A stretch of 64,000 nt of DNA from the NCBI GenBank assembly GCA_000002435.2, contig CM018792.1. One strand, 5' to 3'. Positions 5,187 through 49,694 of the stretch are shown here, in pieces. The translations under genes and the position numbers were made by a program. Origin of the DNA: Giardia intestinalis. Its lineage: Eukaryota. Positions within the stretch are counted from its first letter, which is position 1. Each line of letters starts with the position of its first letter. The notes beneath the pieces were generated by a model. That model saw only the letters and a list, made by a program, of their open reading frames with translations, was not told the DNA's origin and ran no database searches.

Positions 5187-5208
5187 CCACTATCACACAC
5201 TGCACAGC

Positions 5209-9013: not shown

Positions 9014-9049
9014 CCACTATCACACACTGCACAGCATTCACTACCTAAG

Positions 9050-10840: not shown

Positions 10841-10962
10841 TCCTCCCTCAGCCTTTGTACATATCTCACTCCACTATCATACTATCACACACTATCACCC
10901 ATTATCACCCTCTATCACACATTATCACCCATTATCATCACTCATAGCATTCACTACCTAAG

Positions 10963-12786: not shown

Positions 12787-12908
12787 TCCTCCCTCAGCCT
12801 TTGTACATATCTCACTCCACTATCATACTATCACACACTATCACCCATTATCACCCTCTATCACACATTATCACCCATTATCATCACTCATAGCATTCAC
12901 TACCTAAG

Positions 12909-14603: not shown

Positions 14604-14725
14604 TCCTCCCTCAGCCTTTGTACATATCTCACTCCACTATCATACTATCACACGCTATCACCCATTATCACCCTCTATCACACATTATCACCCATTATCA
14701 TCACTCATAGCATTCACTACCTAAG

Positions 14726-16549: not shown

Positions 16550-16671
16550 TCCTCCCTCAGCCTTTGTACATATCTCACTCCACTATCATACTATCACACA
16601 CTATCACCCATTATCACCCTCTATCACACATTATCACCCATTATCATCACTCATAGCATTCACTACCTAAG

Positions 16672-18366: not shown

Positions 18367-18488
18367 TCCTCCCTCAGCCTTTGTACATATCTCACTCCAC
18401 TATCATACTATCACACACTATCACCCATTATCACCCTCTATCACACATTATCACCCATTATCATCACTCATAGCATTCACTACCTAAG

Positions 18489-20333
18489 TCACGCCTTCCC
18501 TCTACACACGAACCACCAGCAGAGGAAGCCCACGAGGCCCCCCACGACAGCGACCACAGCCACGGAGATCCCCGCGATGGCCCCCGCGGAGAGCCCGCTC
18601 CTGTTGGCGCCAGAGGACACGCACCTGCCACCCTCTAGTCTGTACCCATCACTGCACTGGCCGCACTTGTTCTCCTCGCTGCACCTGACGCACCCGTCGA
18701 TACTGCAGGCGATGCACTGGGAGCCGTCCAGGCTGGGCCTCTGGTCTTTACTGGTACAGCCCTCGCACTTATCGCCTGCTCCACAGTGCGAACATCCACT
18801 AACGGTACATGCGAAGCACCCGCTCCCAGCCAGGTTGGGCTTGTTGTTGCCGCTACACGCTGTGCACGTGGCGGGGGCCATGCCAGGAGCCTCTAGCTGT
18901 GTCGGGGCTGTACATGCTGAGCAGCCATCTACTCCCACATATGCCTTAGCAGTATCACCAGTGCCTGTCAGTGTGCCTAGGGGGTTGCTACAAGCCAACA
19001 CGGACTGATCAGTGTTGGATGCCCCTGGGACCAGGAAGTACTTATTACTTGCTGCCTCTGTGCATATCCCATTACTACTTGATGCCTTGCACATGAAGCT
19101 ACCTGGTTCTTGACCAACCTTATAACAGCCTCCCATATATAAGAAGTACCCTTGAGCACACTGTGTACATGTATGACTGTCACAGGTATTAGTTCCTTTC
19201 TTATTATTATCACTAGTACATATACCATCAATAGGGAACTTATTAGCCTCTCCACAGTAAGAACAATAGTGCTTTGTGGTGCCCTGATCATCTATTATCA
19301 TGGCATCACAGGCGCCAGAGGTACCACCGCAAGCCGTTGTATCCTCGCAGGTCTTTGTACATGTGACCCCAGTTGAAGGGGTACCGTTTTGCTTGTAGTT
19401 GGGCTTACAGGAGTTGCAGGTCAACGAGCCAGAGAAGGTGCACGTTGCACATCCATCGATGCCCCCCTGTGCATTATCACAAGCAACGCACTCACCAGTA
19501 GGACCACTGCCTTTCATGAAGAATCCAGGCTTGCATTTAGTACACTGATTATTGCCAGTTTGAGTGCAGGTGGCACAATTATCACCACAGGCTGCGCATG
19601 TAACCGTACCACTACCACTACTGTAGTATCCAGCTAAGCACTCTGAGCAGGTTGGATTGGCACTTGCTGTCTTCGTGCAAGCCTTACAGCCAGCAATGCC
19701 TTTGTTCTTTGGGTCTGATCCGCTGGTATCGCTGCACAAGACACACGCAGCATCACCATCTGCCTTGAAGTGATCAGCATCCTCGCAGCCAGAGCTTATA
19801 TCGACGCATGTCGTGGTGCCATCGATGGCCGTCTTCACCTTCTTATTGTTATTACAGGCGGTGCACTGGGGCTTACTGACAGTCGCATTGTACTTACAGG
19901 TAGTACATGCTTGATCTATCGTACTGCATTCCTTGCACGTTCCAGACTCTGGGTCTGGATAAACGGTGCTCGTGCATTGATCACTAGTTACGCAAGTCTT
20001 ATCACCCTTCAAGTACTTCCCCTCTGGACACGATGTGCACTGGGCCGCCGATGTCTCACAGGTCAGACAAGTACCATCACACTTGCTACATGCCTGAAAG
20101 TCCTTGTAGTACCCTGCTTGACAGGCAGTACACGTGGCTGCCCCCTTATTACTATCTGACTTGGTGCATGTGGCGCAGTTAGCCACCCCCGTATACCCAT
20201 CTGCTCCCGTGGCATCATGACAGAGTATGCACTCATTACCAGGGGTCACCTTCTCTGCCCCATTCTGGAATATGTACTGGTTATCTGTCTTACAAGCAGT
20301 GCACACTCCATCCTTGGCTGCTGTGCATATCAT
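18489..20333 (-). CDS. VSP cassette U9 (D-type first ~35 aa, A body, B tail); fortuitous ATG, no signal peptide
   Basis: 614 aa. MICTAAKDGVCTACKTDNQYIFQNGAEKVTPGNECILCHDATGADGY, then A-type body, then B-type C-terminal block. ATG at 20331-20333 but no signal sequence. Confidence 0.8.
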   Translation of the reverse strand: MICTAAKDGVCTACKTDNQYIFQNGAEKVTPGNECILCHDATGADGYTGVANCATCTKSDSNKGAATCTACQAGYYKDFQACSKCDGTCLTCETSAAQCTSCPEGKYLKGDKTCVTSDQCTSTVYPDPESGTCKECSTIDQACTTCKYNATVSKPQCTACNNNKKVKTAIDGTTTCVDISSGCEDADHFKADGDAACVLCSDTSGSDPKNKGIAGCKACTKTASANPTCSECLAGYYSSGSGTVTCAACGDNCATCTQTGNNQCTKCKPGFFMKGSGPTGECVACDNAQGGIDGCATCTFSGSLTCNSCKPNYKQNGTPSTGVTCTKTCEDTTACGGTSGACDAMIIDDQGTTKHYCSYCGEANKFPIDGICTSDNNKKGTNTCDSHTCTQCAQGYFLYMGGCYKVGQEPGSFMCKASSSNGICTEAASNKYFLVPGASNTDQSVLACSNPLGTLTGTGDTAKAYVGVDGCSACTAPTQLEAPGMAPATCTACSGNNKPNLAGSGCFACTVSGCSHCGAGDKCEGCTSKDQRPSLDGSQCIACSIDGCVRCSEENKCGQCSDGYRLEGGRCVSSGANRSGLSAGAIAGISVAVVAVVGGLVGFLCWWFVCRGKA

Positions 20334-20392
20334 ACTCCACTATCACCCTCTATCACACACTATCACACACTGTACAGCATTCACTACCTAAG

Positions 20393-31670: not shown

Positions 31671-33428
31671 TCACGCCTTCCCTCTACACACGAACCACCA
31701 GCAGAGGAAGCCCACGAGGCCCCCCACGACAGCGACCACAGCCACGGAGATCCCCGCGATGGCCCCCGCGGAGAGCCCGCTCCTGTTGGCGCCAGAGGAC
31801 ACACACTTACCATTGTCTAGACTGAAGCCACTGTTGCACTCCCCACACACACCGTCCACCACACAGCTCTTGCAGTTGGTGTCAGAGCATACTACACACC
31901 CACTGCCATCCTTGTTGGGCTTTTTATCACTGTCACAGGAGGTGCACACAGCGGGGGTCATACCACCATCAGACAGACCTGCTGGGGCTGTACATGCTGA
32001 ACAGCCATCTATTCCCACATATGCCTTAGCAGCACTATCAGTGCCTGTTGATGTGCCTAGGGGGTTACTACATGCCAACACGGACTGCTGAGCATTGGTT
32101 GCCCCCGGAACCAGGAAGTATCTATTGTTGGCTGCTTCTGTACAGACACCCTCCTTACTTGATGTCTTGCACATGAGGCTACCTGGTTCTGTATTAACCT
32201 TGTAACAACCATTCATATACATAAAGTACCCTGTAGTACAAGACTCACAGACATGGTTGTTACAAGTATTACTTTGAGCCTCACTAGCACAGAGACCATC
32301 TATAGGATACTTACTGCTATCCCCACAATAGGAACAGTAATGATGCTCTACTCCATCATTGTCGATCACTATAGCATCGCAGGCCCCTGCTGTCCCACCA
32401 CACGCAGTATCATCTTCACAGGCCTTTGTACATGTGACCCCAGTTGAAGGTTCTCCACTGGGTCTGTAGTTCACCTTGCATTTTGTGCACTTAAATGTGC
32501 CACTATTTGTGCACTCGGCACACCCCTCGATGCCACCTTTGGTTGTGTCACTACATGAGATGCACTCACCAGAGGAGCTATCCTTCAAGAAGTACCCTTG
32601 CTTACATGTCAGGCACTTACTCGGATCTTCCTTCTTGGAGCATGTCGCACAGCCTGGAGCGCACGGATCGCATGTAAAGCCCCCGCTTCTGTTCTCGATG
32701 TATCCCTCCAGGCATTCTGTGCAGGCTGGATTGGCACTCGCTGTCTTCGTGCAAGCCTTACAGCCAGCAATGCCTTTGTTCTTTTGTTCTGAATCCGACG
32801 CTGCGGGATCACTGCACAAACGACACACGTTGTCCTCGGTCATAAAGAGACCGTTATCAGCTCCTTGACACCCGGCGTAGTTCTTCGCCACGCAGGTCGA
32901 GGTTCCATCAAGGGTCGTCCTGGGGATCTTGGTTCCATCATCGCCACACTTACTGCACTTCGGCTTCTTGGTAGTCGAATCAACTTCACACTGGGTACAG
33001 CTGGGATCTATCGTACTACATTCCTTGCACGTTCTGGTAGCTTCGTCAGTATAGTGTGTGCCTGTGCATGAGCCAGCTACGACACAATCAGTCCCCTTCA
33101 GGTACTTCCCCGCTACGCAGAGGGTGCATGCATTCTGACCGGTTCCACTACACGTCTCGCAGTCGGTATGACATTTGACACATGCACCGTTACCATCTTT
33201 ATAGTACCCTGCTTGACACTCTGTACACGTGGCAGCTCCTGGACTACCACTTGGTTCCGTGCACTTGAGGCAGTTAGCCACTCCTTTGTTCTCATTCGCT
33301 CCCGTGGCATCATGGCACAGGATGCACTCCCCACCAGGGGTCACCTTCTCTGCCCTGTTCTGGAATATGTACTGACTATCTGTATTACAAGCAGTGCACA
33401 GTCCATTACTGGCCTTTGTACATATCAC
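31671..33428 (-). CDS. VSP cassette U16 (family D), identical to U21
   Basis: 585 aa identical to U21. Differs from U10 only in the first ~17 aa and a few tail residues. Confidence 0.8.
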   Translation of the reverse strand: MICTKASNGLCTACNTDSQYIFQNRAEKVTPGGECILCHDATGANENKGVANCLKCTEPSGSPGAATCTECQAGYYKDGNGACVKCHTDCETCSGTGQNACTLCVAGKYLKGTDCVVAGSCTGTHYTDEATRTCKECSTIDPSCTQCEVDSTTKKPKCSKCGDDGTKIPRTTLDGTSTCVAKNYAGCQGADNGLFMTEDNVCRLCSDPAASDSEQKNKGIAGCKACTKTASANPACTECLEGYIENRSGGFTCDPCAPGCATCSKKEDPSKCLTCKQGYFLKDSSSGECISCSDTTKGGIEGCAECTNSGTFKCTKCKVNYRPSGEPSTGVTCTKACEDDTACGGTAGACDAIVIDNDGVEHHYCSYCGDSSKYPIDGLCASEAQSNTCNNHVCESCTTGYFMYMNGCYKVNTEPGSLMCKTSSKEGVCTEAANNRYFLVPGATNAQQSVLACSNPLGTSTGTDSAAKAYVGIDGCSACTAPAGLSDGGMTPAVCTSCDSDKKPNKDGSGCVVCSDTNCKSCVVDGVCGECNSGFSLDNGKCVSSGANRSGLSAGAIAGISVAVVAVVGGLVGFLCWWFVCRGKA

Positions 33429-33495
33429 ACTCCACTATCACACTATCACCCTCTATTACCCATTATCACACATTGTATAGCATTCACTACCTAAG

Positions 33496-35229
33496 TCACG
33501 CCTTCCCCCTGCACACGAACCACCAGCAGAGGAAGCCCACGAGGCCCCCCACGACAGCGACCACAGCCACGGAGATCCCCGCGATGGCCCCCGCGGAGAG
33601 CCCGCTCCTGTTGGCGCCAGAGGACACACACTTACCATTGTCTAGACTGAAGCCACTGTTGCACTCCCCACATATATTATCCATCACACAGCTCTTACAA
33701 CCACCCACAGAGCACAGGACACACCCACTGCCGTCCCTGTTGGGCTTCCTATCACTGTCACAGGAGGTACAGACAGCGGGGGTCATACCAGCTGTTGTTA
33801 GAGCTGTCGGGGCTGTGCACTGGGAGCAGCCATCTACCCCCACATATGCCTTAGCAGTATTACCAGTGCCTGTCAGTGTGCCAAGGGGGTTACTACAAGC
33901 CAACACAGACTGATCAGTGTTGGATGCACCAGGCACTACGAAGTACCTATTGTTGGCTGCTTCTGTGCAGATCCCAGTATTACCTGCTGTCTTGCACATG
34001 AAGCTACCAGGAGCCTTCTGAGTGCTATAACAGCCACCCATATATAAGAAATATCCTGTAGTACAAGACTCACAGACATGGTTGTTACAAGTATTACTTT
34101 GAGCCTCACTAGCACAGAGACCATCTATAGGATACTTACTGCTATCCCCACAGTATGAACAATAGTGCTTTGTGGTGCCCTGATCATCTATTATCATGGC
34201 ATCACAGGCGCCAGAGGTACCACCGCAAGCCGTTGTATCCTCGCAGGTCTTTGTACATGTGACCCCAGTTGAAGGGGTACCGTTTTGCTTGTAGTTGGGC
34301 TTACAGGAGTTGCAGGTCAACGAGCCAGAGAAGGTGCACGTTGCACATCCATCGATGCCCCCCTGTGCATTATCACAAGCAACGCACTCACCAGTAGGAC
34401 CACTGCCTTTCATGAAGAATCCAGGCTTGCATTTAGTACACTGATTATTGCCAGTTTGAGTGCAGGTGGCACAATTATCACCACAGGCTGCGCATGTAAC
34501 CGTACCACTACCACTACTGTAGTATCCAGCTAAGCACTCTGAGCAGGTTGGATTGGCACTTGCTGTCTTCGTGCAAGCCTTACAGCCAGCAATGCCTTTG
34601 TTCTTTGGGTCTGATCCGCTGGTATCGCTGCACAAGACACACGCAGCATCACCATCTGCCTTGAAGTGATCAGCATCCTCGCAGCCAGAGCTTATATCGA
34701 CGCATGTCGTGGTGCCATCGATGGCCGTCTTCACCTTCTTATTGTTATTACAGGCGGTGCACTGGGGCTTACTGACAGTCGCATTGTACTTACAGGTAGT
34801 ACATGCTTGATCTATCGTACTGCATTCCTTGCACGTTCCAGACTCTGGGTCTGGATAAACGGTGCTCGTGCATTGATCACTAGTTACGCAAGTCTTATCA
34901 CCCTTCAAGTACTTCCCCTCTGGACACGATGTGCACTGGGCCGCCGATGTCTCACAGGTCAGACAAGTACCATCACACTTGCTACATGCCTGAAAGTCCT
35001 TGTAGTACCCTGCTTGACAGGCAGTACACGTGGCTGCCCCCTTATTACTATCTGACTTGGTGCATGTGGCGCAGTTAGCCACCCCCGTATACCCATCTGC
35101 TCCCGTGGCATCATGACAGAGTATGCACTCCCTTCCCTTCTCTGGTGCTGTAGCAGGGTTCTGGAATACGTACTTGTTATCTGTCTTACAAGCAGTGCAC
35201 AGTCCATTACTGGCTGCTGTGCATATCAC
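33496..35229 (-). CDS. VSP cassette U17 (A N-terminal half + E/B middle + C/D tail)
   Basis: 577 aa. A-type to ...DDQGTTKHYCSYCG, then DSSKYPIDGLCASEAQSNTC...STQKAPGSFMCKTAGNTGICTEAANNRYFVVPGASNTD. Tail CVLCSVGGCKSCVMDNICGECNSGFSLDNGKCVSSGANRSG..CRGKA. Confidence 0.8.
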   Translation of the reverse strand: MICTAASNGLCTACKTDNKYVFQNPATAPEKGRECILCHDATGADGYTGVANCATCTKSDSNKGAATCTACQAGYYKDFQACSKCDGTCLTCETSAAQCTSCPEGKYLKGDKTCVTSDQCTSTVYPDPESGTCKECSTIDQACTTCKYNATVSKPQCTACNNNKKVKTAIDGTTTCVDISSGCEDADHFKADGDAACVLCSDTSGSDPKNKGIAGCKACTKTASANPTCSECLAGYYSSGSGTVTCAACGDNCATCTQTGNNQCTKCKPGFFMKGSGPTGECVACDNAQGGIDGCATCTFSGSLTCNSCKPNYKQNGTPSTGVTCTKTCEDTTACGGTSGACDAMIIDDQGTTKHYCSYCGDSSKYPIDGLCASEAQSNTCNNHVCESCTTGYFLYMGGCYSTQKAPGSFMCKTAGNTGICTEAANNRYFVVPGASNTDQSVLACSNPLGTLTGTGNTAKAYVGVDGCSQCTAPTALTTAGMTPAVCTSCDSDRKPNRDGSGCVLCSVGGCKSCVMDNICGECNSGFSLDNGKCVSSGANRSGLSAGAIAGISVAVVAVVGGLVGFLCWWFVCRGKA

Positions 35230-35265
35230 CCACTATCACACATTGTACAGCATTCACTACCCAAG

Positions 35266-37032
35266 TCACGCCTTCCCCCTGCACACGAACCACCAGCAGA
35301 GGAAGCCCACGAGGCCCCCCACGACAGCGACCACAGCGACGGAGATCCCCGCGATGGCCCCCGTGGAGAGCCCGCTCCTGTTGGTACTCATAGACACACA
35401 GGAGGTCCCACTGCTGTCTAGACTGAAGCCACTGTTGCACTCCCCACACACATCATCCACCACACAGCTCTTGCAATCACCCACAGAGCACAGCACACAC
35501 CCGGTGCCATCCTTGTTGGGCTTCTTATCACTGTCACAGGAGGTGCATGTAGCGGCAGTCATACCACCATCAGACAGAGCTGTTGGGGCCGTGCATGCTG
35601 AGCAGTTGAGTACCCCAACGTATGCCTTAGCATTGTCTTGAGTACCTATTAGTGTGCCTAATGGGTTACCACATGCTAGTACAGACTGCTGAGCATTGGT
35701 TGCCTCTGGGACTACGAAGTATCTATTGTTGGCCGCTTCTGTGCATATCCCAGTATTACCTGCTGTCTTGCACATGAAGCTACCAGGAGCCTTCTGAGTG
35801 CTATAACAGCCACCCATGTATAGGAAGTAGTTGTTGGTGCACTGTGTACATACACCATTAGCACAAGTATTCCCAGCCTTTTGAGCCTCACTAGCACAGA
35901 GACCATCTATAGGAGCTTGTGAACTATCTCCACAATAGGAACAGTAGTGCTTTGTGGTGCCCTGATCATCTATTACGATGGCATCACAAGAGCCAGCTGT
36001 CCCCCCACAAGCCGTGGGGTCCTCGCAGGTCTTCTCTGTGCATGTATAGTTGTCTGAGGTTCCAGCGGGCTTCCTGTTAGGCTTGCACTTTGTGCACTTG
36101 AGAGGTCCTGTAGACTCCTTTGTGCACTCGGCACACCCATCGATGCCCCCCTGTGCATTATCACAAGCAACGCACTCACCAGTAGGACCATTGCCTTTCA
36201 TGAAGAACCCAGGCTTGCATGTATCACACTTATCATTGCCAGTTTGAGTGCAGGTGGCACAGTTAGCACCTGGACAAGCGGTGCATGTAACCGTACCACT
36301 ACCACTACTGTAGTATCCATCGAGGCACTCCGAGCAGGTCGGCGGTGTCGCCGAGTCCTTGGTACACTTCTTACACCCGGCAATGCCCTGGTAATTTGGA
36401 TCGGCTCCAGCTGAAACGGTACTGCATAAAACACATGTTTTGTCCTCCTTCATAAATAGGGCCTCGTCAGCGCCTTTACATCCAGCGTAGTCTTTTGTCA
36501 CGCACGTCGAGGTCCCATCAAGGGCCGTCCTGGGGATCTTACTGTTATCACAAGCTGTGCACTTCGGCTTCTTGGTAGTCGAATCAACCTCACACTGGGT
36601 ACATGCTTGATCTATCGTGTTGCAAGGAAGGCACTTCCCCGACTCCGGGTCAGCATAAGTGTTTCCAGTGCATCCATTATTATTCACGCATGACTTGTCA
36701 GTCTTCAGGTACTTCCCCTCTGGACACGATGTACACTGATTCGGACCACTTCCATCGCAGGTCAGACAAGACTGATCACACTGCATACATACCAGAGAGT
36801 CCTTGTAGTATCCATCTTGGCAGGTATCACACGTGGCAGCCCCTGGACTATTAGCTGGTGCCGTGCACTTGAGGCAATTAGCCACTCCCTTGTTCTCATT
36901 CGCTCCCGTGGCATCATGGCACAGGATGCACTCATTACCAGGGGTCACTGTCGTAGCCTTGTTCTGGAATATGTACTGGTTATCTACCTTACAAGCAGTG
37001 CACACTCCATCACTGGCTGCTGTGCATATCAC
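35266..37032 (-). CDS. VSP cassette U18 (family F N-terminal half + E middle + unique tail)
   Basis: 588 aa. ...CMQCDQSCLTCDGSGPNQCTSC...TACDNSKIPRTALDGTSTCVTKDYAGCKGADEALFMKEDKTCVLC.... Tail ...CVLCSVGDCKSCVVDDVCGECNSGFSLDSSGTSCVSMSTNRSG..CRGKA. Confidence 0.8.
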   Translation of the reverse strand: MICTAASDGVCTACKVDNQYIFQNKATTVTPGNECILCHDATGANENKGVANCLKCTAPANSPGAATCDTCQDGYYKDSLVCMQCDQSCLTCDGSGPNQCTSCPEGKYLKTDKSCVNNNGCTGNTYADPESGKCLPCNTIDQACTQCEVDSTTKKPKCTACDNSKIPRTALDGTSTCVTKDYAGCKGADEALFMKEDKTCVLCSTVSAGADPNYQGIAGCKKCTKDSATPPTCSECLDGYYSSGSGTVTCTACPGANCATCTQTGNDKCDTCKPGFFMKGNGPTGECVACDNAQGGIDGCAECTKESTGPLKCTKCKPNRKPAGTSDNYTCTEKTCEDPTACGGTAGSCDAIVIDDQGTTKHYCSYCGDSSQAPIDGLCASEAQKAGNTCANGVCTQCTNNYFLYMGGCYSTQKAPGSFMCKTAGNTGICTEAANNRYFVVPEATNAQQSVLACGNPLGTLIGTQDNAKAYVGVLNCSACTAPTALSDGGMTAATCTSCDSDKKPNKDGTGCVLCSVGDCKSCVVDDVCGECNSGFSLDSSGTSCVSMSTNRSGLSTGAIAGISVAVVAVVGGLVGFLCWWFVCRGKA

Positions 37033-37099
37033 ACTCCACTATCACACATTATCACACTATCACCTTCTATCACACATTGTACAGCATTCACTACCTAAG

Positions 37100-39070
37100 T
37101 CACGCCTTCCCCCTGCACACGAACCACCAGCAGAGGAAGCCCACGAGGCCCCCCACGACAGCGATGACAGCCACGGAGATCCCTGCTATGGCACCAGTAC
37201 TGAGGCCGCTTCTGTTGCCCCCGCTGGGCTTGGTGGACACGCACGCCTCACCCTCCAGCCTGTAGTCGTCCCCACACTGGCCGCACTTGTTCTCCTCGCT
37301 GCACCTGACGCACCCGTCGATACTGCAGGCGATGCACTGGGAGCCGTCCAGGCTGGGCCTCTGGTCTTTACTGGTACAGCCCTCGCACTTATCGCCTGCT
37401 CCACAGTGCGAACATCCACTAACGGTACATGCGAAGCACCCGCTCCCAGCCAGGTTGGGCTTGTTGTTGCCGCTACACGCTGTGCACGTGGCGGGGGCCA
37501 TGCCAGGAGCCTCTAGCTGTGTCGGGGCTGTACATGCTGAGCAGCCATCTACTCCCACATATGCCTTAGCAGTATCACCAGTGCCTGTCAGTGTGCCTAG
37601 GGGGTTGCTACAAGCCAACACGGACTGATCAGTGTTGGATGCCCCTGGGACCAGGAAGTACTTATTACTTGCTGCCTCTGTGCATATCCCATTACTACTT
37701 GATGCCTTGCACATGAAGCTACCTGGTTCTTGACCAACCTTATAACAGCCTCCCATATATAAGAAGTACCCTTGAGCACACTGTGTACATGTATGACTGT
37801 CACAGGTATTAGTTCCTTTCTTATTATTATCACTAGTACATATACCATCAATAGGGAACTTATTAGCCTCTCCACAGTAAGAACAATAGTGCTTTGTGGT
37901 GCCCTGATCATCTATTATCATGGCATCACAGGCGCCAGAGGTACCACCGCAAGCCGTTGTATCCTCGCAGGTCTTTGTACATGTGACCCCAGTTGAAGGG
38001 GTACCGTTTTGCTTGTAGTTGGGCTTACAGGAGTTGCAGGTCAACGAGCCAGAGAAGGTGCACGTTGCACATCCATCGATGCCCCCCTGTGCATTATCAC
38101 AAGCAACGCACTCACCAGTAGGACCATTGCCTTTCATGAAGAACCCAGGCTTGCATGTATCACACTTATCATTGCCAGTTTGAGTGCAGGTGGCACAGTT
38201 AGCACCTGGACAAGCGGTGCATGTAACCGTACCACTACCACTACTGTAGTATCCATCGAGGCACTCCGAGCAGGTCGGCGGTGTCGCCGAGTCCTTGGTA
38301 CACTTCTTACACCCGGCAATGCCCTGGTAATTTGGATCGGCTCCAGCTGAAACGGTACTGCATAAAACACATGTTTTGTCCTCCTTCATAAATAGGGCCT
38401 CGTCAGCGCCTTTACATCCAGCGTAGTCTTTTGTCACGCACGTCGAGGTCCCATCAAGGGCCGTCCTGGGGATCTTACTGTTATCACAAGCTGTGCACTT
38501 CGGCTTCTTGGTAGTCGAATCAACCTCACACTGGGTACATGCTTGATCTATCGTGTTGCAAGGAAGGCACTTCCCCGACTCCGGGTCAGCATAAGTGTTT
38601 CCAGTGCATCCATTATTATTCACGCATGACTTGTCAGTCTTCAGGTACTTCCCCTCTGGACACGATGTGCAATGATTCGGACCACTTCCATCGCAGGTCA
38701 GACAGGACGGATCACACTTCTCACATGCATCACCCTTCTTAATGTATCCATCTTGGCAGACAGTGCATGTGGCCGGTCCGCTAGTGCCCGTGTGGGAGCA
38801 TTCTGAGCATCCAGCGACTCCCATGACCCCGTTTCTATCTATAGTATCGGAGCACAAGATGCACTCACTACCCTTCTCTGATGGTGTAACTGGGTTCTTG
38901 AACAGGCCGTTAGCTGTATTACAAGCAGTGCACAGTCCTCCCTCAGCCTTTGTGCATATCTCACTGCCAGGGTGTGCATCCTTGTTGTAGCACCCGCCCA
39001 TGAAGAGGAGTCTCATACTATCACTATCACCCCCACACCACATAGCACTATCACTATCACTGTACAGCAT
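37100..39070 (-). CDS. VSP cassette U19 (E start + F block + A block + B-variant tail); E-type extended 5' boundary
   Basis: 656-aa ORF. The first residues LYSDSDS... are spacer read-through. Successive blocks match U12, U18, U1 and U15. Confidence 0.75.
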   Translation of the reverse strand: MLYSDSDSAMWCGGDSDSMRLLFMGGCYNKDAHPGSEICTKAEGGLCTACNTANGLFKNPVTPSEKGSECILCSDTIDRNGVMGVAGCSECSHTGTSGPATCTVCQDGYIKKGDACEKCDPSCLTCDGSGPNHCTSCPEGKYLKTDKSCVNNNGCTGNTYADPESGKCLPCNTIDQACTQCEVDSTTKKPKCTACDNSKIPRTALDGTSTCVTKDYAGCKGADEALFMKEDKTCVLCSTVSAGADPNYQGIAGCKKCTKDSATPPTCSECLDGYYSSGSGTVTCTACPGANCATCTQTGNDKCDTCKPGFFMKGNGPTGECVACDNAQGGIDGCATCTFSGSLTCNSCKPNYKQNGTPSTGVTCTKTCEDTTACGGTSGACDAMIIDDQGTTKHYCSYCGEANKFPIDGICTSDNNKKGTNTCDSHTCTQCAQGYFLYMGGCYKVGQEPGSFMCKASSSNGICTEAASNKYFLVPGASNTDQSVLACSNPLGTLTGTGDTAKAYVGVDGCSACTAPTQLEAPGMAPATCTACSGNNKPNLAGSGCFACTVSGCSHCGAGDKCEGCTSKDQRPSLDGSQCIACSIDGCVRCSEENKCGQCGDDYRLEGEACVSTKPSGGNRSGLSTGAIAGISVAVIAVVGGLVGFLCWWFVCRGKA

Positions 39071-39082
39071 TCACTACCTAAG

Positions 39083-40870
39083 TCACGCCTTCCCCCTGCA
39101 CAGGAACCACCAGCAGAGGAAGCCCACGAGGCCCCCCACGACAGCGACCACGGCGACGGCAATGCCCGCGATGGCGCCCGTGGAGAGCCCGCTCCTGTTG
39201 GTGCTCGTAGACACACAGGAGGTCCCACTGCTGTCAGGGCTGTATCCACTGTTGCACACACAGACAGAGTTATCATCAGTGGAGTTGCTGGGGCAGCCAT
39301 CCACGCATGACTTCCTCCCAGGGCTCACCTTCTTACCACTACTACACACCTCGCACATGTCATCCCTGTTGCAGTGGGAGCATCCACTAATGGCACATGA
39401 GAAGCACCCACTGCCGTCCCTGTTGGGCTTCCTATCACTGTCACAGGAGGTACACACAGCAGCAGCCATACCACCCTCAGTCAGAGCTGTTGGGGCTGTG
39501 CACTGTGAGCAGCCATCCACCCCCACGTATGCCTTAGCAGTATCACCAGTGCCTGTCAGTGTGCCTAGGGGGTTGCTACAAGCCAACACGGACTGATCAG
39601 TGTTGGATGCCCCTGGGACCAGGAAGTACTTATTACTTGCTGCCTCTGTGCATATCCCATTACTACTTGATGCCTTGCACATGAAGCTACCTGGTTCTTG
39701 ACCAACCTTATAACAGCCTCCCATATATAAGAAGTACCCTTGAGCACACTGTGTACATGTATGACTGTTACAAGTATTACCTTTCTTATCAGTAGCACAG
39801 ATGCCATCAATTGGTACCTTAGTACTCTCCCCACAGTATGAGCAATAGTGAAGCTCCTTTCCATCAGCACCGATCACTATGGCATCACAAGAGCCAGCTG
39901 TCCCCCCGCATGCAGTCTCATCTTCACAGGTCTTTGTACACGTATAGTCATCCCCTGCATCTCCATTAAGCTGTTTCTTATAGTTAGGCTTACAGTCAGT
40001 ACATTTGAATCCACCACTGTTAGAGCATGCACTGCACCCATCGCGGCCACCATTTGCTGTATCACTACATGAGATGCACTCACCAGAGGAGCTATCCTTC
40101 AAGAAGTACCCTTGCTTGCAGGTCGTGCATTGGTCTTTTGTATCCTTAGCACAGGTGGCACAGTTCTCACCACAGGCTGTGCATGTAGCGGTATTACCAC
40201 TTGCACTATTGTAATATCCATCGAGGCACTTTGTACATGTAGTTTTAGAGGAGCAGGTATCACAACCTAGAATCCCACCATTTTTAGTATCACCACATGG
40301 AACACAAGCTTTTGGAGATTGTTCAAGGAAGTGCGTATTGCCACTTGTGCACTCTGCCTCCGCAACACACGTCGCTGACCCATCGGGGTTCACCTTAAGA
40401 AGCAGGTTTCCTCCACTATTACACCCAGTGCACACAGGCTTCTGAAGAGTGTCGCTGTATGCACACGTAGCACATTCATTGACACTTGTGTCCGTGCAGG
40501 CCTTGCATTGGCCTGTTTTTGGGTCTGCATACTTACCATTGTCACATTGATTAGCATCCACACACTTGTCAGCCTTCAGGAACTTCCCCTCAACGCAGGC
40601 GGTACACTGAGTCGGAGTATCAGCTGAGCAGGCAGAGCAGCCCTCTCCGCACTTCACACATGCACTGTCCTTCTTAACGAACCCATCTTGACAGGCAGTA
40701 CATGTGACAGGTCCTGCACTCTGTGGTGCCTGACACTGTGCGCAGTTAGCCACCCCCGTATATCCATCTGCTCCCTTGATATCATGACAGAGGATGCACT
40801 CACTACCCTTCTCTGGTGTTGCAGCAGGGTTCTTGAACAGGCCGTTATCTGCCTTACAAGTAGTGCACAC
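39083..40870 (-). CDS. VSP cassette U20 (C N-terminal half + A middle + long C-type tail)
   Basis: 595 aa. C-type to ...TCTKTCEDETACGGTAGSCDAIVIGADGKELHYCSYCGESTKVPIDGICATDKKGNTCNSHTCTQCAQGYFLYMGGCYKVGQEPGSFMCKASSSNGICTEAASNKYF (A-type block), then the U4-type tail. Confidence 0.8.
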   Translation of the reverse strand: MCTTCKADNGLFKNPAATPEKGSECILCHDIKGADGYTGVANCAQCQAPQSAGPVTCTACQDGFVKKDSACVKCGEGCSACSADTPTQCTACVEGKFLKADKCVDANQCDNGKYADPKTGQCKACTDTSVNECATCAYSDTLQKPVCTGCNSGGNLLLKVNPDGSATCVAEAECTSGNTHFLEQSPKACVPCGDTKNGGILGCDTCSSKTTCTKCLDGYYNSASGNTATCTACGENCATCAKDTKDQCTTCKQGYFLKDSSSGECISCSDTANGGRDGCSACSNSGGFKCTDCKPNYKKQLNGDAGDDYTCTKTCEDETACGGTAGSCDAIVIGADGKELHYCSYCGESTKVPIDGICATDKKGNTCNSHTCTQCAQGYFLYMGGCYKVGQEPGSFMCKASSSNGICTEAASNKYFLVPGASNTDQSVLACSNPLGTLTGTGDTAKAYVGVDGCSQCTAPTALTEGGMAAAVCTSCDSDRKPNRDGSGCFSCAISGCSHCNRDDMCEVCSSGKKVSPGRKSCVDGCPSNSTDDNSVCVCNSGYSPDSSGTSCVSTSTNRSGLSTGAIAGIAVAVVAVVGGLVGFLCWWFLCRGKA

Positions 40871-40992
40871 TCCTCCCTCAGCCTTTGTACATATCTCACT
40901 CCACTATCATACTATCACACACTATCACCCATTATCACCCTCTATCACACATTATCACCCATTATCATCACTCATAGCATTCACTACCTAAG

Positions 40993-42750
40993 TCACGCCT
41001 TCCCTCTACACACGAACCACCAGCAGAGGAAGCCCACGAGGCCCCCCACGACAGCGACCACAGCCACGGAGATCCCCGCGATGGCCCCCGCGGAGAGCCC
41101 GCTCCTGTTGGCGCCAGAGGACACACACTTACCATTGTCTAGACTGAAGCCACTGTTGCACTCCCCACACACACCGTCCACCACACAGCTCTTGCAGTTG
41201 GTGTCAGAGCATACTACACACCCACTGCCATCCTTGTTGGGCTTTTTATCACTGTCACAGGAGGTGCACACAGCGGGGGTCATACCACCATCAGACAGAC
41301 CTGCTGGGGCTGTACATGCTGAACAGCCATCTATTCCCACATATGCCTTAGCAGCACTATCAGTGCCTGTTGATGTGCCTAGGGGGTTACTACATGCCAA
41401 CACGGACTGCTGAGCATTGGTTGCCCCCGGAACCAGGAAGTATCTATTGTTGGCTGCTTCTGTACAGACACCCTCCTTACTTGATGTCTTGCACATGAGG
41501 CTACCTGGTTCTGTATTAACCTTGTAACAACCATTCATATACATAAAGTACCCTGTAGTACAAGACTCACAGACATGGTTGTTACAAGTATTACTTTGAG
41601 CCTCACTAGCACAGAGACCATCTATAGGATACTTACTGCTATCCCCACAATAGGAACAGTAATGATGCTCTACTCCATCATTGTCGATCACTATAGCATC
41701 GCAGGCCCCTGCTGTCCCACCACACGCAGTATCATCTTCACAGGCCTTTGTACATGTGACCCCAGTTGAAGGTTCTCCACTGGGTCTGTAGTTCACCTTG
41801 CATTTTGTGCACTTAAATGTGCCACTATTTGTGCACTCGGCACACCCCTCGATGCCACCTTTGGTTGTGTCACTACATGAGATGCACTCACCAGAGGAGC
41901 TATCCTTCAAGAAGTACCCTTGCTTACATGTCAGGCACTTACTCGGATCTTCCTTCTTGGAGCATGTCGCACAGCCTGGAGCGCACGGATCGCATGTAAA
42001 GCCCCCGCTTCTGTTCTCGATGTATCCCTCCAGGCATTCTGTGCAGGCTGGATTGGCACTCGCTGTCTTCGTGCAAGCCTTACAGCCAGCAATGCCTTTG
42101 TTCTTTTGTTCTGAATCCGACGCTGCGGGATCACTGCACAAACGACACACGTTGTCCTCGGTCATAAAGAGACCGTTATCAGCTCCTTGACACCCGGCGT
42201 AGTTCTTCGCCACGCAGGTCGAGGTTCCATCAAGGGTCGTCCTGGGGATCTTGGTTCCATCATCGCCACACTTACTGCACTTCGGCTTCTTGGTAGTCGA
42301 ATCAACTTCACACTGGGTACAGCTGGGATCTATCGTACTACATTCCTTGCACGTTCTGGTAGCTTCGTCAGTATAGTGTGTGCCTGTGCATGAGCCAGCT
42401 ACGACACAATCAGTCCCCTTCAGGTACTTCCCCGCTACGCAGAGGGTGCATGCATTCTGACCGGTTCCACTACACGTCTCGCAGTCGGTATGACATTTGA
42501 CACATGCACCGTTACCATCTTTATAGTACCCTGCTTGACACTCTGTACACGTGGCAGCTCCTGGACTACCACTTGGTTCCGTGCACTTGAGGCAGTTAGC
42601 CACTCCTTTGTTCTCATTCGCTCCCGTGGCATCATGGCACAGGATGCACTCCCCACCAGGGGTCACCTTCTCTGCCCTGTTCTGGAATATGTACTGACTA
42701 TCTGTATTACAAGCAGTGCACAGTCCATTACTGGCCTTTGTACATATCAC
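40993..42750 (-). CDS. VSP cassette U21 (family D), identical to U16
   Basis: 585 aa identical to U16. CRGKA tail. The 67-nt spacer to U22 is identical to the U16/U17 spacer. Confidence 0.8.
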   Translation of the reverse strand: MICTKASNGLCTACNTDSQYIFQNRAEKVTPGGECILCHDATGANENKGVANCLKCTEPSGSPGAATCTECQAGYYKDGNGACVKCHTDCETCSGTGQNACTLCVAGKYLKGTDCVVAGSCTGTHYTDEATRTCKECSTIDPSCTQCEVDSTTKKPKCSKCGDDGTKIPRTTLDGTSTCVAKNYAGCQGADNGLFMTEDNVCRLCSDPAASDSEQKNKGIAGCKACTKTASANPACTECLEGYIENRSGGFTCDPCAPGCATCSKKEDPSKCLTCKQGYFLKDSSSGECISCSDTTKGGIEGCAECTNSGTFKCTKCKVNYRPSGEPSTGVTCTKACEDDTACGGTAGACDAIVIDNDGVEHHYCSYCGDSSKYPIDGLCASEAQSNTCNNHVCESCTTGYFMYMNGCYKVNTEPGSLMCKTSSKEGVCTEAANNRYFLVPGATNAQQSVLACSNPLGTSTGTDSAAKAYVGIDGCSACTAPAGLSDGGMTPAVCTSCDSDKKPNKDGSGCVVCSDTNCKSCVVDGVCGECNSGFSLDNGKCVSSGANRSGLSAGAIAGISVAVVAVVGGLVGFLCWWFVCRGKA

Positions 42751-42817
42751 ACTCCACTATCACACTATCACCCTCTATTACCCATTATCACACATTGTAT
42801 AGCATTCACTACCTAAG

Positions 42818-44887
42818 TCACGCCTTCCCCCTGCACACGAACCACCAGCAGAGGAAGCCCACGAGGCCCCCCACGACAGCGACCACAGCCACGGAGATCC
42901 CCGCGATGGCCCCCGCGGAGAGCCCGCTCCTGTTGGCGCCAGAGGACACACACTTACCATTGTCTAGACTGAAGCCACTGTTGCACTCCCCACATATATT
43001 ATCCATCACACAGCTCTTACAACCACCCACAGAGCACAGGACACACCCACTGCCGTCCCTGTTGGGCTTCTTACTACTGTCACAGGAGGTACAGACAGCG
43101 GGGGCCATACCACCATCAGACAGAGCTGCTGGGGCTGTACACTGGGAGCAGCCCTCTACTCCCACATATGCCTTAGCAGTATCACCAGTGCCTGTCAGTG
43201 TGCCTAGGGGGTTGCTACAAGCCAACACAGACTGATCAGTGTTGGATGCACCAGGCACTACGAAGTACCTATTGTTGGCTGCTTCTGTGCAGATCCCAGT
43301 ATTACCTGCTGTCTTGCACATGAAGCTACCAGGAGCCTTCTGAGTGCTATAACAGCCACCCATGTATAGGAAGTAGTTGTTGGTGCACTGTGTACATACA
43401 CCATTAGCACAAGTATTCCCAGCCTTTTGAGCCTCACTAGCACAGAGACCATCTATAGGAGCTTGTGAACTATCTCCACAATAGGAACAGTAGTGCTTTG
43501 TGGTGCCCTGATCATCTATTACGATGGCATCACAAGAGCCAGCTGTCCCCCCACAAGCCGTGGGGTCCTCGCAGGTCTTCTCTGTGCATGTATAGTTGTC
43601 TGAGGTTCCAGCGGGCTTCCTGTTAGGCTTGCACTTTGTGCACTTGAGAGGTCCTGTAGACTCCTTTGTGCACTCGGCACACCCATCGATGCCCCCCTGT
43701 GCATTATCACAAGCAACGCACTCACCAGTAGGACCATTGCCTTTCATGAAGAATCCAGGCTTGCATTTAGTGCACTTATCATTGCCAGCTTGAGTGCAGG
43801 TGGCACAGTTGGCACCACAGGCTTCACATGTAACCGTACCACCATTTCCACTATTGTAATATCCGTCGAGGCACTCCGAGCAGGTCGGCTTGGCTCCGTT
43901 CTTCTTACATGTTTTACACCCAGGCGTCCCTTTATTAGCTTCTAAACTTTCACTATCATCACTACACAATATGCACTTGGTGCTACCATCATTTAGAAAG
44001 TGGGATCCGTCAACGTTACTTGTTGCGCACCCATTTGCATCGACACAGGTTGTCGTGCCATCGATGGCCGTCTTCACCATCTTCTGACCACCGCAGTTAG
44101 TGCACTTCGGCTTCTTGGTAGTCGAATCAACCTCACACTGGGTACATGCTTGATCTATCGTGTTGCAAGGAAGGCACTTCCCCGACTCCGGGTCAGCATA
44201 AGTGTTTCCAGTGCATCCATTATTATTCACGCATGACTTGTCACCCTTCAAGTACTTCCCCTCTGGACACGATGTGCACTGGGCCGCCGATGTCTCACAG
44301 GTCAGACAAGTACCATCACACTTGCTACATGCCTGAAAGTCCTTGTAGTACCCTGCTTGACAGGCAGTACACGTGGCTGCCCCCTTATTACTGTCTGACT
44401 TGGTACACTGTGCGCAGTTAGCCACCCCCGTATATCCATCTGCTCCATTGATATCGGAGCACAGTATGCACTCACTACCCTTCTCTGGTGTTGCAGCAGG
44501 GTTCTTGAACAGGCCGTTAGCTGTCTTACACTCAGTGCACAGTCCTCCCTCAGCCTTTGTGCATATCTCGCTGCCGGGCCCGTCGGTTGTCTTGTAGCAC
44601 CCGCCCATGAAGAGGAAGTACCCGTCGCCGCACTTCTCGCAGGTTGCTGTCATCTTGTCAAGGGCAGCCCCGCCCGCTTTGGTGCACCCGGCTGCCGCGG
44701 CCTGGGGGGAGCCGAAGGGTCGGCAGAAGCCGTCGACCGGGACGCCCCCGGTCTTGCACTCGGTGCAGATCTCGGCTGACCCGACCGTCTCGCACTTGCC
44801 GGTCTGGCAGGTCGCGGCGTGGTCTCCGTCTGGCTGGCAGGCCGCCATGAGCGCGCTCGCTACGAACAGGGGTATCAGTTGGAACAT
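42818..44887 (-). CDS. Complete variant-specific surface protein (VSP) gene: signal peptide, unique N-terminal ~180 aa, mosaic Cys-rich body, TM, CRGKA
   Basis: ATG at 44885-44887 (minus strand) gives MFQLIPLFVASALMAACQPDGDHAATCQ.... This is 690 aa to CRGKA, with stop at 42818. The ORF-track extension to 45076 (752 aa) is GC-rich stop-free flank with no start or signal context. It is the only unit in the array with a signal peptide and a body upstream of ...SEICTKAEGGLCTEC. Confidence 0.8.
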   Translation of the reverse strand: MFQLIPLFVASALMAACQPDGDHAATCQTGKCETVGSAEICTECKTGGVPVDGFCRPFGSPQAAAAGCTKAGGAALDKMTATCEKCGDGYFLFMGGCYKTTDGPGSEICTKAEGGLCTECKTANGLFKNPAATPEKGSECILCSDINGADGYTGVANCAQCTKSDSNKGAATCTACQAGYYKDFQACSKCDGTCLTCETSAAQCTSCPEGKYLKGDKSCVNNNGCTGNTYADPESGKCLPCNTIDQACTQCEVDSTTKKPKCTNCGGQKMVKTAIDGTTTCVDANGCATSNVDGSHFLNDGSTKCILCSDDSESLEANKGTPGCKTCKKNGAKPTCSECLDGYYNSGNGGTVTCEACGANCATCTQAGNDKCTKCKPGFFMKGNGPTGECVACDNAQGGIDGCAECTKESTGPLKCTKCKPNRKPAGTSDNYTCTEKTCEDPTACGGTAGSCDAIVIDDQGTTKHYCSYCGDSSQAPIDGLCASEAQKAGNTCANGVCTQCTNNYFLYMGGCYSTQKAPGSFMCKTAGNTGICTEAANNRYFVVPGASNTDQSVLACSNPLGTLTGTGDTAKAYVGVEGCSQCTAPAALSDGGMAPAVCTSCDSSKKPNRDGSGCVLCSVGGCKSCVMDNICGECNSGFSLDNGKCVSSGANRSGLSAGAIAGISVAVVAVVGGLVGFLCWWFVCRGKA

Positions 44888-47675
44888 TAGAGGGTCCCCT
44901 GCTGTGGCCTCTACCCCGTCTGTGGCTACCCAGCACGGCACACGGGGGGAGCGCTGTTCCACCCCTGCCTTGGAGGCCCCTGTCTCGACTCGGCCCACAG
45001 CACCAGAGCGTGGTGGTCTTCCACTCTTGGGCCCCGCACAGCCCGTCTCTGTGCCCAAGCGACTCACCCCAGGCACTCACACGACGGAGACCCCCGCGGC
45101 AGTGCTCCGGCAGGCGGGCTGCGCTGATGTCCGGCCCGGCGCAGAGCCCAGAAGGCTCAGAGGTCATGGCTCCTTGATGACTGCCATGTCGTTCTCCTCG
45201 CTCGGTTGACATGCACCCTGCTAGAAGGCTCCCACTTACTCGAGCTCATGCCCCCCTGTGGTGACTCTGCTCGACCATCAGCGAGGGTCCCGGTCCTCCT
45301 CCCAATAGGCCGGCCTCAGGTCCCCCGTGATCTGCCAGACCGGGCAGAGTGATCGCGGCGCCCGTCAGAGCCTGAGCCGACAGGCCCGCAGTGAAGTGCG
45401 CCTGGATCCACGGAGATCGTTCACTCCCCCAGTGGGCCGCAGCTTCCCCTGCCCTGCTGACAGTCCTCCAGCGAGGGCATGTCGTTGTGGGGCAGTCTTC
45501 TCGTCCTGCCGTGCACACAGGGCCCGACTGGTGACTTTCGGACAGTCCCGATGGTATGCCTGAAGCCCCGCCACGGCAGAGGGGGCAGCACACGGGGCGG
45601 CCCCTACGCTGCTACAGATTGCAATGGCAGCAGAGACCCCCTGCCCGAGAGGCCCGTGCATTGGCTGTGGCGGCCATCCACTCCATGCGGGCCCGGTGCG
45701 GCGCTCCTGGAGAGCCCTTGCCTCTGGTGGTGCTGACAGGGCTCCCGAGGGACCAAGGCGTCAGACGAGGGACGGGCCGAGCAGGACTCCCAGCCCACAT
45801 GCAGATGTCCCTGCCGTGTGCCCGGTCCTGTAGAGACCCGAGCCGCTGGAGGTGTCCCTCGGCATCCGGCCCCCTGCTGTGCCAGTCGGTGCAGGGGAGC
45901 AGCGTACAGGGCCCTCATGGGCAGTCTCCTCTCACAGACAGGGCACCAGGGGTCTCAGCAACCGACCGGCCGATGCAAGGGACAGGCTCTCCTGCCACGA
46001 CGGCGCTCTGCTGCTAGGAGGGTCTGGCGGACAAGCTATCAGCACACGCACTCTCCTGGGCCGCCTCGGGGCACTCCAGCGTGGCCAGCGGCTTGCGGAT
46101 CAGTCTGGTGTCCCGGAGCGTGTGAGGAAGATGAGGGGTTTACTCTGGGCTGCCGTCTTGTCGAGGGCAGTCCCGTGCATGAAGCTCTGAACTCATGTGA
46201 TGCCGGTCCAGAGGCACCTCTGACGAGAGCATTAACAAGAGAAGCGTTGAGTAGTCAATGGTCCATCCTGTAAGCAAGCTGCTAGGTGCGAAGGCATTGA
46301 ATCTGTGTGCGGTCGCATGGCCACACATCACGACCCACAACGTCATAGCGCACCGCATAGCTGGCACACCCCAAGGGTGTATGGAGACAGTAGACCAGTA
46401 GTTTAATGGATCAAGGCAGAGACTGTGCCACAAAGCGTGGAAAGACGGGTTCCACAGAAGCTGGTAAGCTACGATCACCAGTCTTCTATAATAGTGAGTG
46501 ATGTCAACAATCTCTTCCCGAAGGAGCTTACAGATCTATCTCTAATCAGCTAACTGGGGGATAAAGAAAAACAACTAGGGTCTACCGTGAGGCACCCTGC
46601 CACAGTTGATCATGGCAGCCACCGATGAATGCACTCCATTCCACAGAATAATAGACACCCGGAGTCCTTTCAATCTGATCGAGTCTAAGTCCACAGCAGA
46701 CCGCCCGGCCCGAGAGCCTACTGTTGCTGGGCGAGGGGCGTCAGTGGACCGTAGCCTTCCATAGACTGGGATAGGTGACCAGTGTCGGGGCTCGTCAACC
46801 ATGATGAATCGGCTGTGATCGGGTATTTCCCTGCCGCATAACTGGGACATGCAGAACAGCTCTGGGCAGAGCGAGAAATTGACTGGAGTGGCGGGGCTGA
46901 ATCCCTCGATTGATGCCAATCTCTGACTACGATATCGGGCGACTCATCGATCTTTTTAGCGATACTAGCCGAGAGTTACAGCTGTCTTTACTTAAGCTAT
47001 CTTTGCGCTTCACTATGCTGATGTTGCTTGTTGTACAGTAAGTCTGTGCTTGCTTAATCTAGATGCCTTTGCACAATAATACCGTAGATGCGCTTAACGA
47101 TTACCCATCAATGCAACTTTTTGCTGAGCTGATTGCATATTATAAAAGTCAATTGTGTCTAAGAAGCTAGCGCCTCAGTAAACCAAAGGAAGGCATATAC
47201 GATGTTAAAAAGTGCCTCTCTAACGTACAATTGACACCTTAATATTCTTCTGATTGTCAATGGCTATAAAGTGAATCTCGTCCGTAGTAAATTCTTAGAG
47301 GAGTTCACAGCTTCTTTGTTATAGCGGACTTGCACACAAATGCACCTCACTTGATGGTCAACACATTTCAATCAGATCAATCAAAAAAATTATTACAATT
47401 CTAGCCAAGTAAAAATCCAATCTTGAGTAAAGATTGAGTTCGATGGCGGCGTGGCAGTCTACATTATAACATCCCTAGGATTTACTGCTGAAAATTGCTG
47501 AGCAATGGCCAATGTGGATACAATTAGATCGTATTAAATAATTGCAATCACTTTAACTGTACATCGCTTGGGGCAGTAAGCAGTTCAGCAGTGCTGGTTT
47601 AGCTTTAGCAAACAAATAAGGTTTGGAAAGACGGTGACTTTATTTTGAATCGATGTTTTTAATAACTTTTATCCT

Positions 47676-49668: not shown

Positions 49669-49694
49669 TAACCGGCTAATAAACTATTATATTC

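Follow-up and report, generated by a model that had tools for sequence, protein, structure and literature searches.

The locus considered here raises the question of where a complete gene for a variant-specific surface protein (VSP) obtained its sequence when it stands at the head of a long row of relatives that lack a start. The window, that is, the whole stretch of DNA analyzed, comprises 64,000 nt of contig CM018792.1 from Giardia intestinalis (assembly GCA_000002435.2). The gene, identified below as vsp1269, is the first of 22 head-to-tail VSP units and the sole one with an ATG, an initiator element (Inr) and a signal peptide; the remaining 21 are psiVSPs in the sense of Xu 2020 (PMC7000408). 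Units are numbered U1-U21 from vsp1269 outward (the Un of an initial annotation of the window is U(22-n) here), and gene positions are counted from the A of the ATG at window position 44887 in the coding direction, which is the minus strand. The body of vsp1269 is pieced together from at least five exact tracts that match different start-less psiVSP units.

Exact tracts in the gene body

Regarding the composition of the body, alignment-free greedy tiling covers gene nt 319-2070 (1752 bases) wholly with exact matches to the units, and no base in this interval is private to vsp1269 when it is compared with the 21 units of the 64-kb window, which are the scope of all donor comparisons. Five tracts are distinguished (Table 1). 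In breakpoint alignments, neighboring tracts overlap by 3-15 nt only (4 nt at the junction of tracts 1 and 2), and sliding identity to the partner falls to about 55-85% within a few bases beyond the tract ends. Several tracts have more than one exact partner. Part of tract 1 (gene nt 415-499) is also exact in U15, U17 and U20; the copies of tract 2 lie at 35049-34898 (U5), 20153-20002 (U13), 8833-8682 (U19) and 5006-4855 (U21); and sub-parts of tract 3 recur exactly in U8/U9 (nt 645-1146), U4 (nt 1135-1595) and U5/U7 (nt 1525-1673). Tract 4 consists of two exact pieces, nt 1729-1798 and 1800-1832, with a deletion in U8 and U9 opposite ~1799-1800. The portion of tract 5 within the gene, nt 1818-2070 (253 nt), equals U5 33748-33496; the repeat then continues, so that a stretch from the gene tail across stop codon and spacer, through the whole of U1 and ~131 nt into U2 equals the tail of U5, U6 and the start of U7.

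Table 1. Positions of the principal features in the window, with the partner sequences of the exact tracts
Feature	Positions	Strand	Description
Complete VSP gene (vsp1269)	42818..44887	minus	ATG 44887, stop 42820-42818, 689 aa, ends CRGKA
Initiator element (Inr)	44883..44889	minus	TAatgTT, sequence read; spans start codon
Head	44570..44887	minus	gene nt 1-318, signal peptide + first ~106 aa; GC 68%, GC3 87%
Tract 1	44389..44541	minus	gene nt 347-499 = U7 31547-31395, exact
Tract 2	44241..44392	minus	gene nt 496-647 = U5, U13, U19, U21, exact
Tract 3	43155..44243	minus	gene nt 645-1733 = U10 25552-24464, 1089 nt exact
Tract 4	43056..43159	minus	gene nt 1729-1832 ~ U8 28247-28145 minus 1 nt
Tract 5	40862..43070	minus	2209-nt exact repeat = 33748-31540; starts gene nt 1818
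21 psiVSP units	3444..42817	minus	head to tail, 1770-1983 nt each, CRGKA-stop ends
Inter-unit spacer (example)	40911..40967	minus	degenerate 10-nt repeat GTGATARTGK (coding strand), copy number variable
Upstream non-coding region	44888..46250		GC 62-69%, compositionally continuous with head

The initial annotation, which had placed the gene correctly at 42818-44887 (minus-strand coding sequence, 689 aa), had proposed a mosaic of six peptide blocks, each copied in a downstream cassette. All six are verbatim in the cassettes that it named: the B block at 31545-31396 (its U15, here U7), the A block at 5003-4851 (its U1, here U21; also at 8830, 20150 and 35046), three E blocks at 25545-25366, 24990-24895 and 24657-24544 (its U12, here U10) and the tail block at 33723-33601 (its U17, here U5). 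The sharing is exact at the nucleotide level and has sharp breakpoints, far from the identity below 90% without transitions that would have spoken for mere family resemblance. In correction of the proposal, the three E pieces belong to a single unbroken tract of 1089 nt, and the list lacked the short tract from U8 (its U14) at gene nt 1729-1832, between E and tail. The tail block is an exact copy as described, but its tract runs on for 1.96 kb past the stop codon.

Statistical support for recombination, a check that the initial annotation had suggested, was obtained by a Sawyer/GENECONV-style permutation (5000 permutations) on 987 polymorphic columns; this replaced a plain column permutation, which ignores rate heterogeneity. 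The longest concordant run extended over 654 sites with U10 (permutation maximum 73), 327 with U8/U9 (35), 98 with the U5-type (40) and 91 with U7 (23), and a run of 273 sites was found with U4. None of the 5000 permutations reached the observed runs, giving p<=2e-4 for every partner. Simple family-level similarity by common descent, with no recombination, would suit a gene-to-unit average pairwise identity of only 67-88%, but the tracts of 100% identity with abrupt ends and the permutation test refute it, and its probability is practically nil.

The junctions also bear on the direction of transfer. Seven haplotypes of +-40 nt occur among the 22 units at nt ~497 and ~646, and that of the gene is the only singleton; the six others are each carried by 2-5 cassettes, and both parental haplotypes are each present in 3-5 cassettes. 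At nt ~1731, the U10-type continuation is common to eight units. At the junctions that are resolved best, a unique gene haplotype faces two multi-copy parents, which makes the gene the recombinant; by the junction haplotypes U10, unlike the gene, is “native” at either end of the 1089-nt tract. The gene as an outward donor is disfavored because five independent tracts would need ends within 3-15 nt of one another. We conclude that vsp1269, or a direct ancestor at this locus, received the tracts.

These data are probably best explained by a gene made up of head and body modules, the head consisting of the GC-rich upstream region, Inr, signal peptide and first ~106-115 aa and the body extending from nt ~319 to the stop, with the body patchwork built by homologous recombination among the repeats of the array. 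Ectopic gene conversion, unequal sister-chromatid exchange and template switching in break repair are candidate pathways, the breakpoint alignments put the junctions into short shared patches of sequence, where crossovers would fall, and the same recombination would shuffle the cassettes among themselves. The ectodomain and tail of the sole unit that carries expression signals would thus be rewritten and the head preserved, since cassette homology stops at nt ~319 and exchange would leave the head untouched; silent material could in this way become new VSP variants. What pathway of recombination acted, in which order and at what rate, is inference on our part, as is any selection of the outcome for antigenic diversification.

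Mosaicism across the array

Several observations weigh against this account of head and body modules, or at least against a privileged role of the gene in it. First, mosaicism is not confined to vsp1269. In a unit-by-unit tiling that leaves out near-identical copies, 2-8 exact tracts of other units cover 100% of each of U3, U7, U9, U10, U13 and U19, most other units are 79-99% tiled, and large type-specific stretches exist only in types a and b. Private bases are almost nonexistent, and the units combine one closed set of block alleles in different ways. Given cassettes no less mosaic than the gene, exchange is general in the array rather than a one-way flow from archive to expression site. 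Second, exact repeats of 1.5-2.2 kb span unit boundaries; by sequence, such repeats fit a tandem array that undergoes unequal exchange or conversion over long tracts. Cassette mosaicism and boundary-crossing tracts together mean that no dedicated “archive” function is needed. Of the segmental conversion from an archive that the initial annotation had put forward, the true recombinant mosaic therefore holds up, but neither its being special to the gene nor one-way flow is supported.

Third, the evidence on direction has its own counterweights. One genome cannot prove direction. The gene is the sole other carrier of the cassette tracts U7 140-276, U10 949-1535 and U5 1651-1770, so these may have passed from the gene to the cassettes or stem from a third donor since lost. 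U8, the only exact partner for nt 1729-1832, is frameshifted there, so that the U8 of today could have been the literal donor only if the deletion came later or is an assembly error. Fourth, the available comparisons give no indication that the mosaic turns over rapidly: the chromosome-scale assembly shows it unchanged from P0024, a protein deposited earlier, and a protein search with aa 1-230 (head and first junctions) found no alternative mosaics in other isolates, where the initial annotation had suggested looking for other block combinations.

Long repeats are conspicuous in the region 9372-19041. A 2082-nt exact pair (16736-14655 = 12973-10892) has a period of 3763 nt, forming a two-unit higher-order repeat, and a 2144-nt exact pair (19041-16898 = 11515-9372) is offset by 7526 nt, that is, 2x the 3763-nt period. 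U15, U17 and U20 are essentially identical.

The general exchange has led to a tentative and somewhat unlikely alternative, according to which the mosaic would be a functionless by-product: unequal crossing-over and bidirectional conversion would homogenize and reshuffle all 22 units, the first unit would be drawn in merely through its homology, and the psiVSPs would be decaying remnants instead of a selected reservoir. Mosaicism common to the cassettes, exact repeats of 1.5-2.2 kb crossing units with a two-unit period of 3763 nt, and frameshifts in three units agree with it, and “remains of discarded vsp genes” are an alternative offered by Adam 2010 (PMC2996952). The frameshifts are single-base deletions in U8, U9 and U11. 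Against this alternative, an uninterrupted open reading frame (ORF) of 575-656 aa is kept in 18/21 units, 40/47 indel events among block alleles are multiples of 3, and the gene is uniquely recombinant at its own junctions. The excess of in-frame indels suggests that the variation passed protein-level selection at some time. Mechanistically, the by-product alternative equals recombination among array repeats as preferred above; the sole difference is whether the outcome was selected.

All four frameshifting 1-base deletions of the array cluster at the equivalent of gene nt 1784-1862 (~80 nt). They are found at 28177/28178 (U8), at the equivalent site in U9, at ~26300-26373 (U9) and at ~22419-22470 (U11), and could be either real decay or long-read consensus errors.

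Histories of head and body

The head (nt 1-318) is absent from every cassette in the window, and cassette homology starts at GAGATATGCACAAAGGC, nt ~319. No conserved boundary repeat, such as might act in cis, was found at the head/body junction; the 10-nt repeat of the spacers separates cassettes only. A GC-rich block (44500-46250, 62-69% GC) takes in 1.3 kb of upstream sequence and the first ~320 nt of the gene. The G+C content at third codon positions (GC3) is 87% in the head vs 53% in the body. This step was considered as evidence of direction and rejected, because the same step is seen in the orthologue from isolate DH (L006:10376-12547) and in an unrelated VSP (L007:10001-11974); its presence in other VSPs makes it a family feature.

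The DH isolate (assemblage AII) provides an outside reference. Synteny was compared between AHGT01000028.1 (L006:1-13963) and window positions 44908-55076, and over 10.2 kb upstream of the gene identity is 97.4%, holding to within 21 nt of the ATG. Over its first ~360-420 nt, the DH VSP is 82-94% identical to vsp1269; beyond that point identity is 57-75%, no nearer to vsp1269 than to any cassette, and no exact tract >47 nt is shared between the DH gene and any unit of isolate WB. This identity profile indicates that AI/AII orthology ends about where array homology begins (nt ~319-355). In the DH assembly, the VSP is followed by an acyltransferase gene; neither a psiVSP array nor a high cysteine membrane protein (HCMP) gene is present in that short-read assembly, in which the array may have collapsed, or the array may be specific to AI.

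The head has relatives at other loci as well. Over aa 31-120 (window 44887-44495 compared) it is 93-100% identical to P0056, a complete WB VSP on another chromosome, including an exact run of 59 aa over aa 73-131 of vsp1269, whereas the bodies of the two are 40-60% identical. The unique N-terminal domain claimed by the initial annotation is thus unique within the window and not elsewhere. Near-identical heads on bodies of 40-60% identity imply that heads and bodies have separate histories. The heads seem to form an exchange group of their own across loci, and at this locus, judged from its sequence, the head behaves as an orthologous, locus-anchored segment. P0058 and P0060 resemble P0056 in head similarity.

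The older entry P0024, introduced above, is an independent deposit of the mosaic. This protein (677 aa, without the first 12 residues) has an identical block order and 2 aa differences, and we infer that it is the product of M83934, the accession listed for this gene by Adam 2010. The two differing residues were considered as micro-conversions; neither matches any cassette, and the idea was rejected. Older WB annotation proteins (XP_0017... entries) and the VSP S6 deposit match U12, U16 and U21 exactly. Owing to the block order of P0024 and these older protein matches, an assembly chimera is very unlikely. More broadly, an assembly or polishing artefact of long-read assembly over the 40-kb repeat array is barely credible: perfect repeats of up to 2.2 kb, single-base frameshifts in U8, U9 and U11 that could be consensus errors, and short-read assemblies that break before the locus might have invited it, but the independent older sequences just described are inconsistent with it, and blocks differ from their alternatives by 15-45%, well beyond polishing effects. 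No exact match to the complete VSP turned up among assembled contigs. The contigs of four independent WB-like short-read assemblies (L008-L011) all end 1.1-1.55 kb past a 272-aa ORF, at ~46100-46600, short of the VSP; that they share contig ends at the GC-rich upstream block suggests that this block is repeated elsewhere in the genome.

The timescale of the mosaic appears to be evolutionary, after the AI/AII split and before the older deposited sequence (P0024, the inferred product of M83934), and the mosaic does not appear to be a VSP switch on the scale of generations. New variants at high frequency were not observed: the only time-separated comparison, that of P0024 with the assembly, is indirect and concerns in vitro material, and it shows the same mosaic. 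These points bear on a programmed, high-frequency cassette system in the style of vlsE, pilE/pilS or mosaic VSG, with unidirectional copying into the first gene during infection. The architecture is suggestive of such a system, since Inr and signal peptide are confined to one gene, cassettes that are truncated and start-less lie in cis, a constant head precedes a variable body, and the body consists entirely of cassette sequence. A programmed system is nevertheless highly doubtful, as the mosaic is the same in the older deposit, the cassettes are not invariant donors, tracts run past the gene end, and there is no conserved boundary repeat at the head side of the variable region. In addition, VSP switching in Giardia is described as epigenetic in the abstract of Adam 2010 (PMC2996952).

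A bolder extension of recombination among array repeats would be a second, DNA-level layer of diversification, in which a fixed head of promoter and signal peptide at the start of psiVSP arrays would serve as an expression site and its ectodomain would be continually rebuilt by segmental conversion from the silent array. This extension is quite unlikely; if true, variants outside the inherited repertoire would appear in chronic infection, as with mosaic VSGs, and the sharp end of AI/AII orthology at the start of array homology would be the footprint of rebuilding.

The array and related antigen systems

The product of vsp1269 is presumably CRP72, the antigen of WB clone 1269, reportedly described by Adam, Yang & Nash in 1992. 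Five proteins encoded in the window are identical to GenBank entries of G. intestinalis WB-C6: the VSP (exact protein match to KAE8304460.1 and XP_037902103.1), thymidine kinase, radial spoke protein 3, a hypothetical protein and an HCMP group 4 protein. An origin from G. muris, which has telomeric psiVSP arrays, was considered and rejected, because G. muris VSPs end in GCRGK and the exact protein matches point to WB-C6. In Additional file 1 of Adam 2010 (PMC2996952), vsp139 is listed as clade I, with the name “1269”, GenBank M83934 and the first position in a linear array, and the same row gives TAATGTT, 689 aa, 69.7 kDa, 80 Cys and 28 CXXC. The gene of the window is identified as vsp1269 because its properties equal this row: its protein has 80 Cys, 28 CXXC and a mass of 69.7 kDa. 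The sequence features of a VSP are present. The Inr at the start codon is followed by the hydrophobic N-terminus MFQLIPLFVASALMAAC, by eye a putative signal peptide; the cysteine-rich ectodomain contains GGCY twice (aa 95 and 510) besides the CXXC motifs; a transmembrane segment and CRGKA form the C-terminus; and TGA-CTTAGGTAGTGAATGCT directly 3′ of the gene corresponds to the VSP-type extended poly(A) signal ACTTAGRTAGTRAAYRY. The product matches Pfam PF03302 (E=7e-44). From its sequence features, vsp1269 is the only member of the array that looks expressible.

The downstream units are built differently. No Inr was found in any of the 21 units, nor a signal peptide, the latter judged by eye. 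Their frames open at W(S)EICT..., immediately past a stop-rich spacer, and the gap from a stop codon to the next open frame is 12-89 nt, in line with the short spacers (~60 bp) of linear arrays. As expected of such arrays, a proper start codon, an Inr and a signal peptide are found in the first member and are missing from those downstream. Seven sequence types with pairwise identities of 62-100% are distinguished among the units. The extended poly(A) signal CTTAGGTAGTGAATGCT, a motif described in bioRxiv 10.1101/2022.03.07.483299, follows every cassette stop but the last, which has CTCAGGTAGTAAACGCG. ATG-initiated frames occur only in U3 and U10, with the ATG inside the preceding poly(A) signal.

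Regarding the spacers, each one between 3444 and 42817 (e.g., 40896-40967) consists of the VSP poly(A) signal and then degenerate 10-nt repeats, and falls into a length class of 12, 33, 53, 61 or 89 nt. The period of 10 nt results in TGA/TAA/TAG stops in all three frames. In the “type c” units U3 (39070-38990) and U10 (25986-25906), the spacer repeat is read in frame as SDSDS; their start ATG overlaps the poly(A) signal (AGTGA-ATG), giving Met-initiated ORFs of 653-656 aa with no signal peptide by eye, and both units reach ~80 nt farther 5′ into head-like sequence than the others. “Variant-specific surface protein S6” (Q8I8W3; AY142127) is listed in Adam 2010 as vsp138 / GL50803_135882. It matches the last 390 aa of U12 (20396-21565) at 100% identity and U1 (40996-42165) and U6 (31674-32843) at 99.5%, so one of the array units without a start is on deposit under a VSP name. 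The array end is followed, after 688 nt, by the gene for an 817-aa “High cysteine membrane protein Group 4” (KAE8304459.1; 302-2755, minus), which has the same orientation as the array and whose product also matches the VSP Pfam domain.

Antigenic variation in Giardia is treated as a purely epigenetic or post-transcriptional choice from a fixed repertoire, and the ~200 start-less psiVSPs figure in it only as a speculative “reservoir”. Here, the body of a named VSP is a base-for-base recombinant of its own downstream pseudogenes, joined to a head that behaves as orthologous between sub-assemblages. The hypothesis of 2010 becomes testable at one locus with five junctions and 21 donors. For VSP vaccines and typing, repertoires drawn from annotated complete genes would underestimate the reachable sequence space.

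The closest precedent is Adam 2010 (PMC2996952), which concerns the same organism, the same family and this very gene (vsp139 “1269”). Its linear-array section describes arrays whose first gene carries an Inr and a long stretch of upstream sequence and whose further members are closely spaced and have no Inr, gives the consensus PyAatgTT, found in no downstream linear-array member surveyed there, and already proposes the cassette hypothesis; GENECONV evidence for recombination in 3′ regions is also reported there. The reservoir idea is repeated in the G. muris genome paper (PMC7641422) and in bioRxiv 10.1101/2022.03.07.483299. In the assembly used in 2010, long arrays were unresolved and the longest had 10 members, whereas the full 21-unit array is available here; the tests of 2010 covered short 3′ regions (234-657 bp) in small clades, whereas here the whole body is tiled at 100% with named donors and breakpoints. 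No publication with a tract-level map of vsp1269 or of any first-in-array gene was found. The psiVSP arrays of G. muris (PMC7641422) are likewise tandem and signal-peptide-less, and VSPs and psiVSPs are stated there, on phylogenetic evidence, to “engage in genetic exchange”; the same paper compares the arrays with the archives of Pneumocystis and T. brucei. The G. muris arrays are telomere-adjacent, the intact VSPs are chromosome-internal and the tail is GCRGK, whereas in the present case the gene heads its own array and the tail is CRGKA.

Among more distant systems, the mosaic VSGs of T. brucei, as is generally known, offer the likeness of an expressed antigen gene assembled by homologous recombination from silent, often incomplete members. 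VSG mosaics arise within infections and are tied to DNA breaks at a telomeric expression site, their donors are dispersed, and homology is provided by 70-bp repeats and a conserved 3′ end; the Giardia mosaic, in contrast, is unchanged in the older deposit. It is likewise general knowledge that Borrelia vlsE/vls, Neisseria pilE/pilS and Anaplasma msp2 place an expression locus beside promoterless truncated cassettes in cis, with constant ends, a variable center and segmental change. Transfer in these bacterial systems is unidirectional and leaves the cassettes unchanged, and it takes place at high frequency in infection with specific cis elements or recombination factors, whereas the Giardia cassettes are themselves shuffled. 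As in systems with silent cassettes, cassette segments are present in a gene predicted to be expression-competent. The finding supports the existing cassette-reservoir hypothesis at the nucleotide level and is not a new kind of system.

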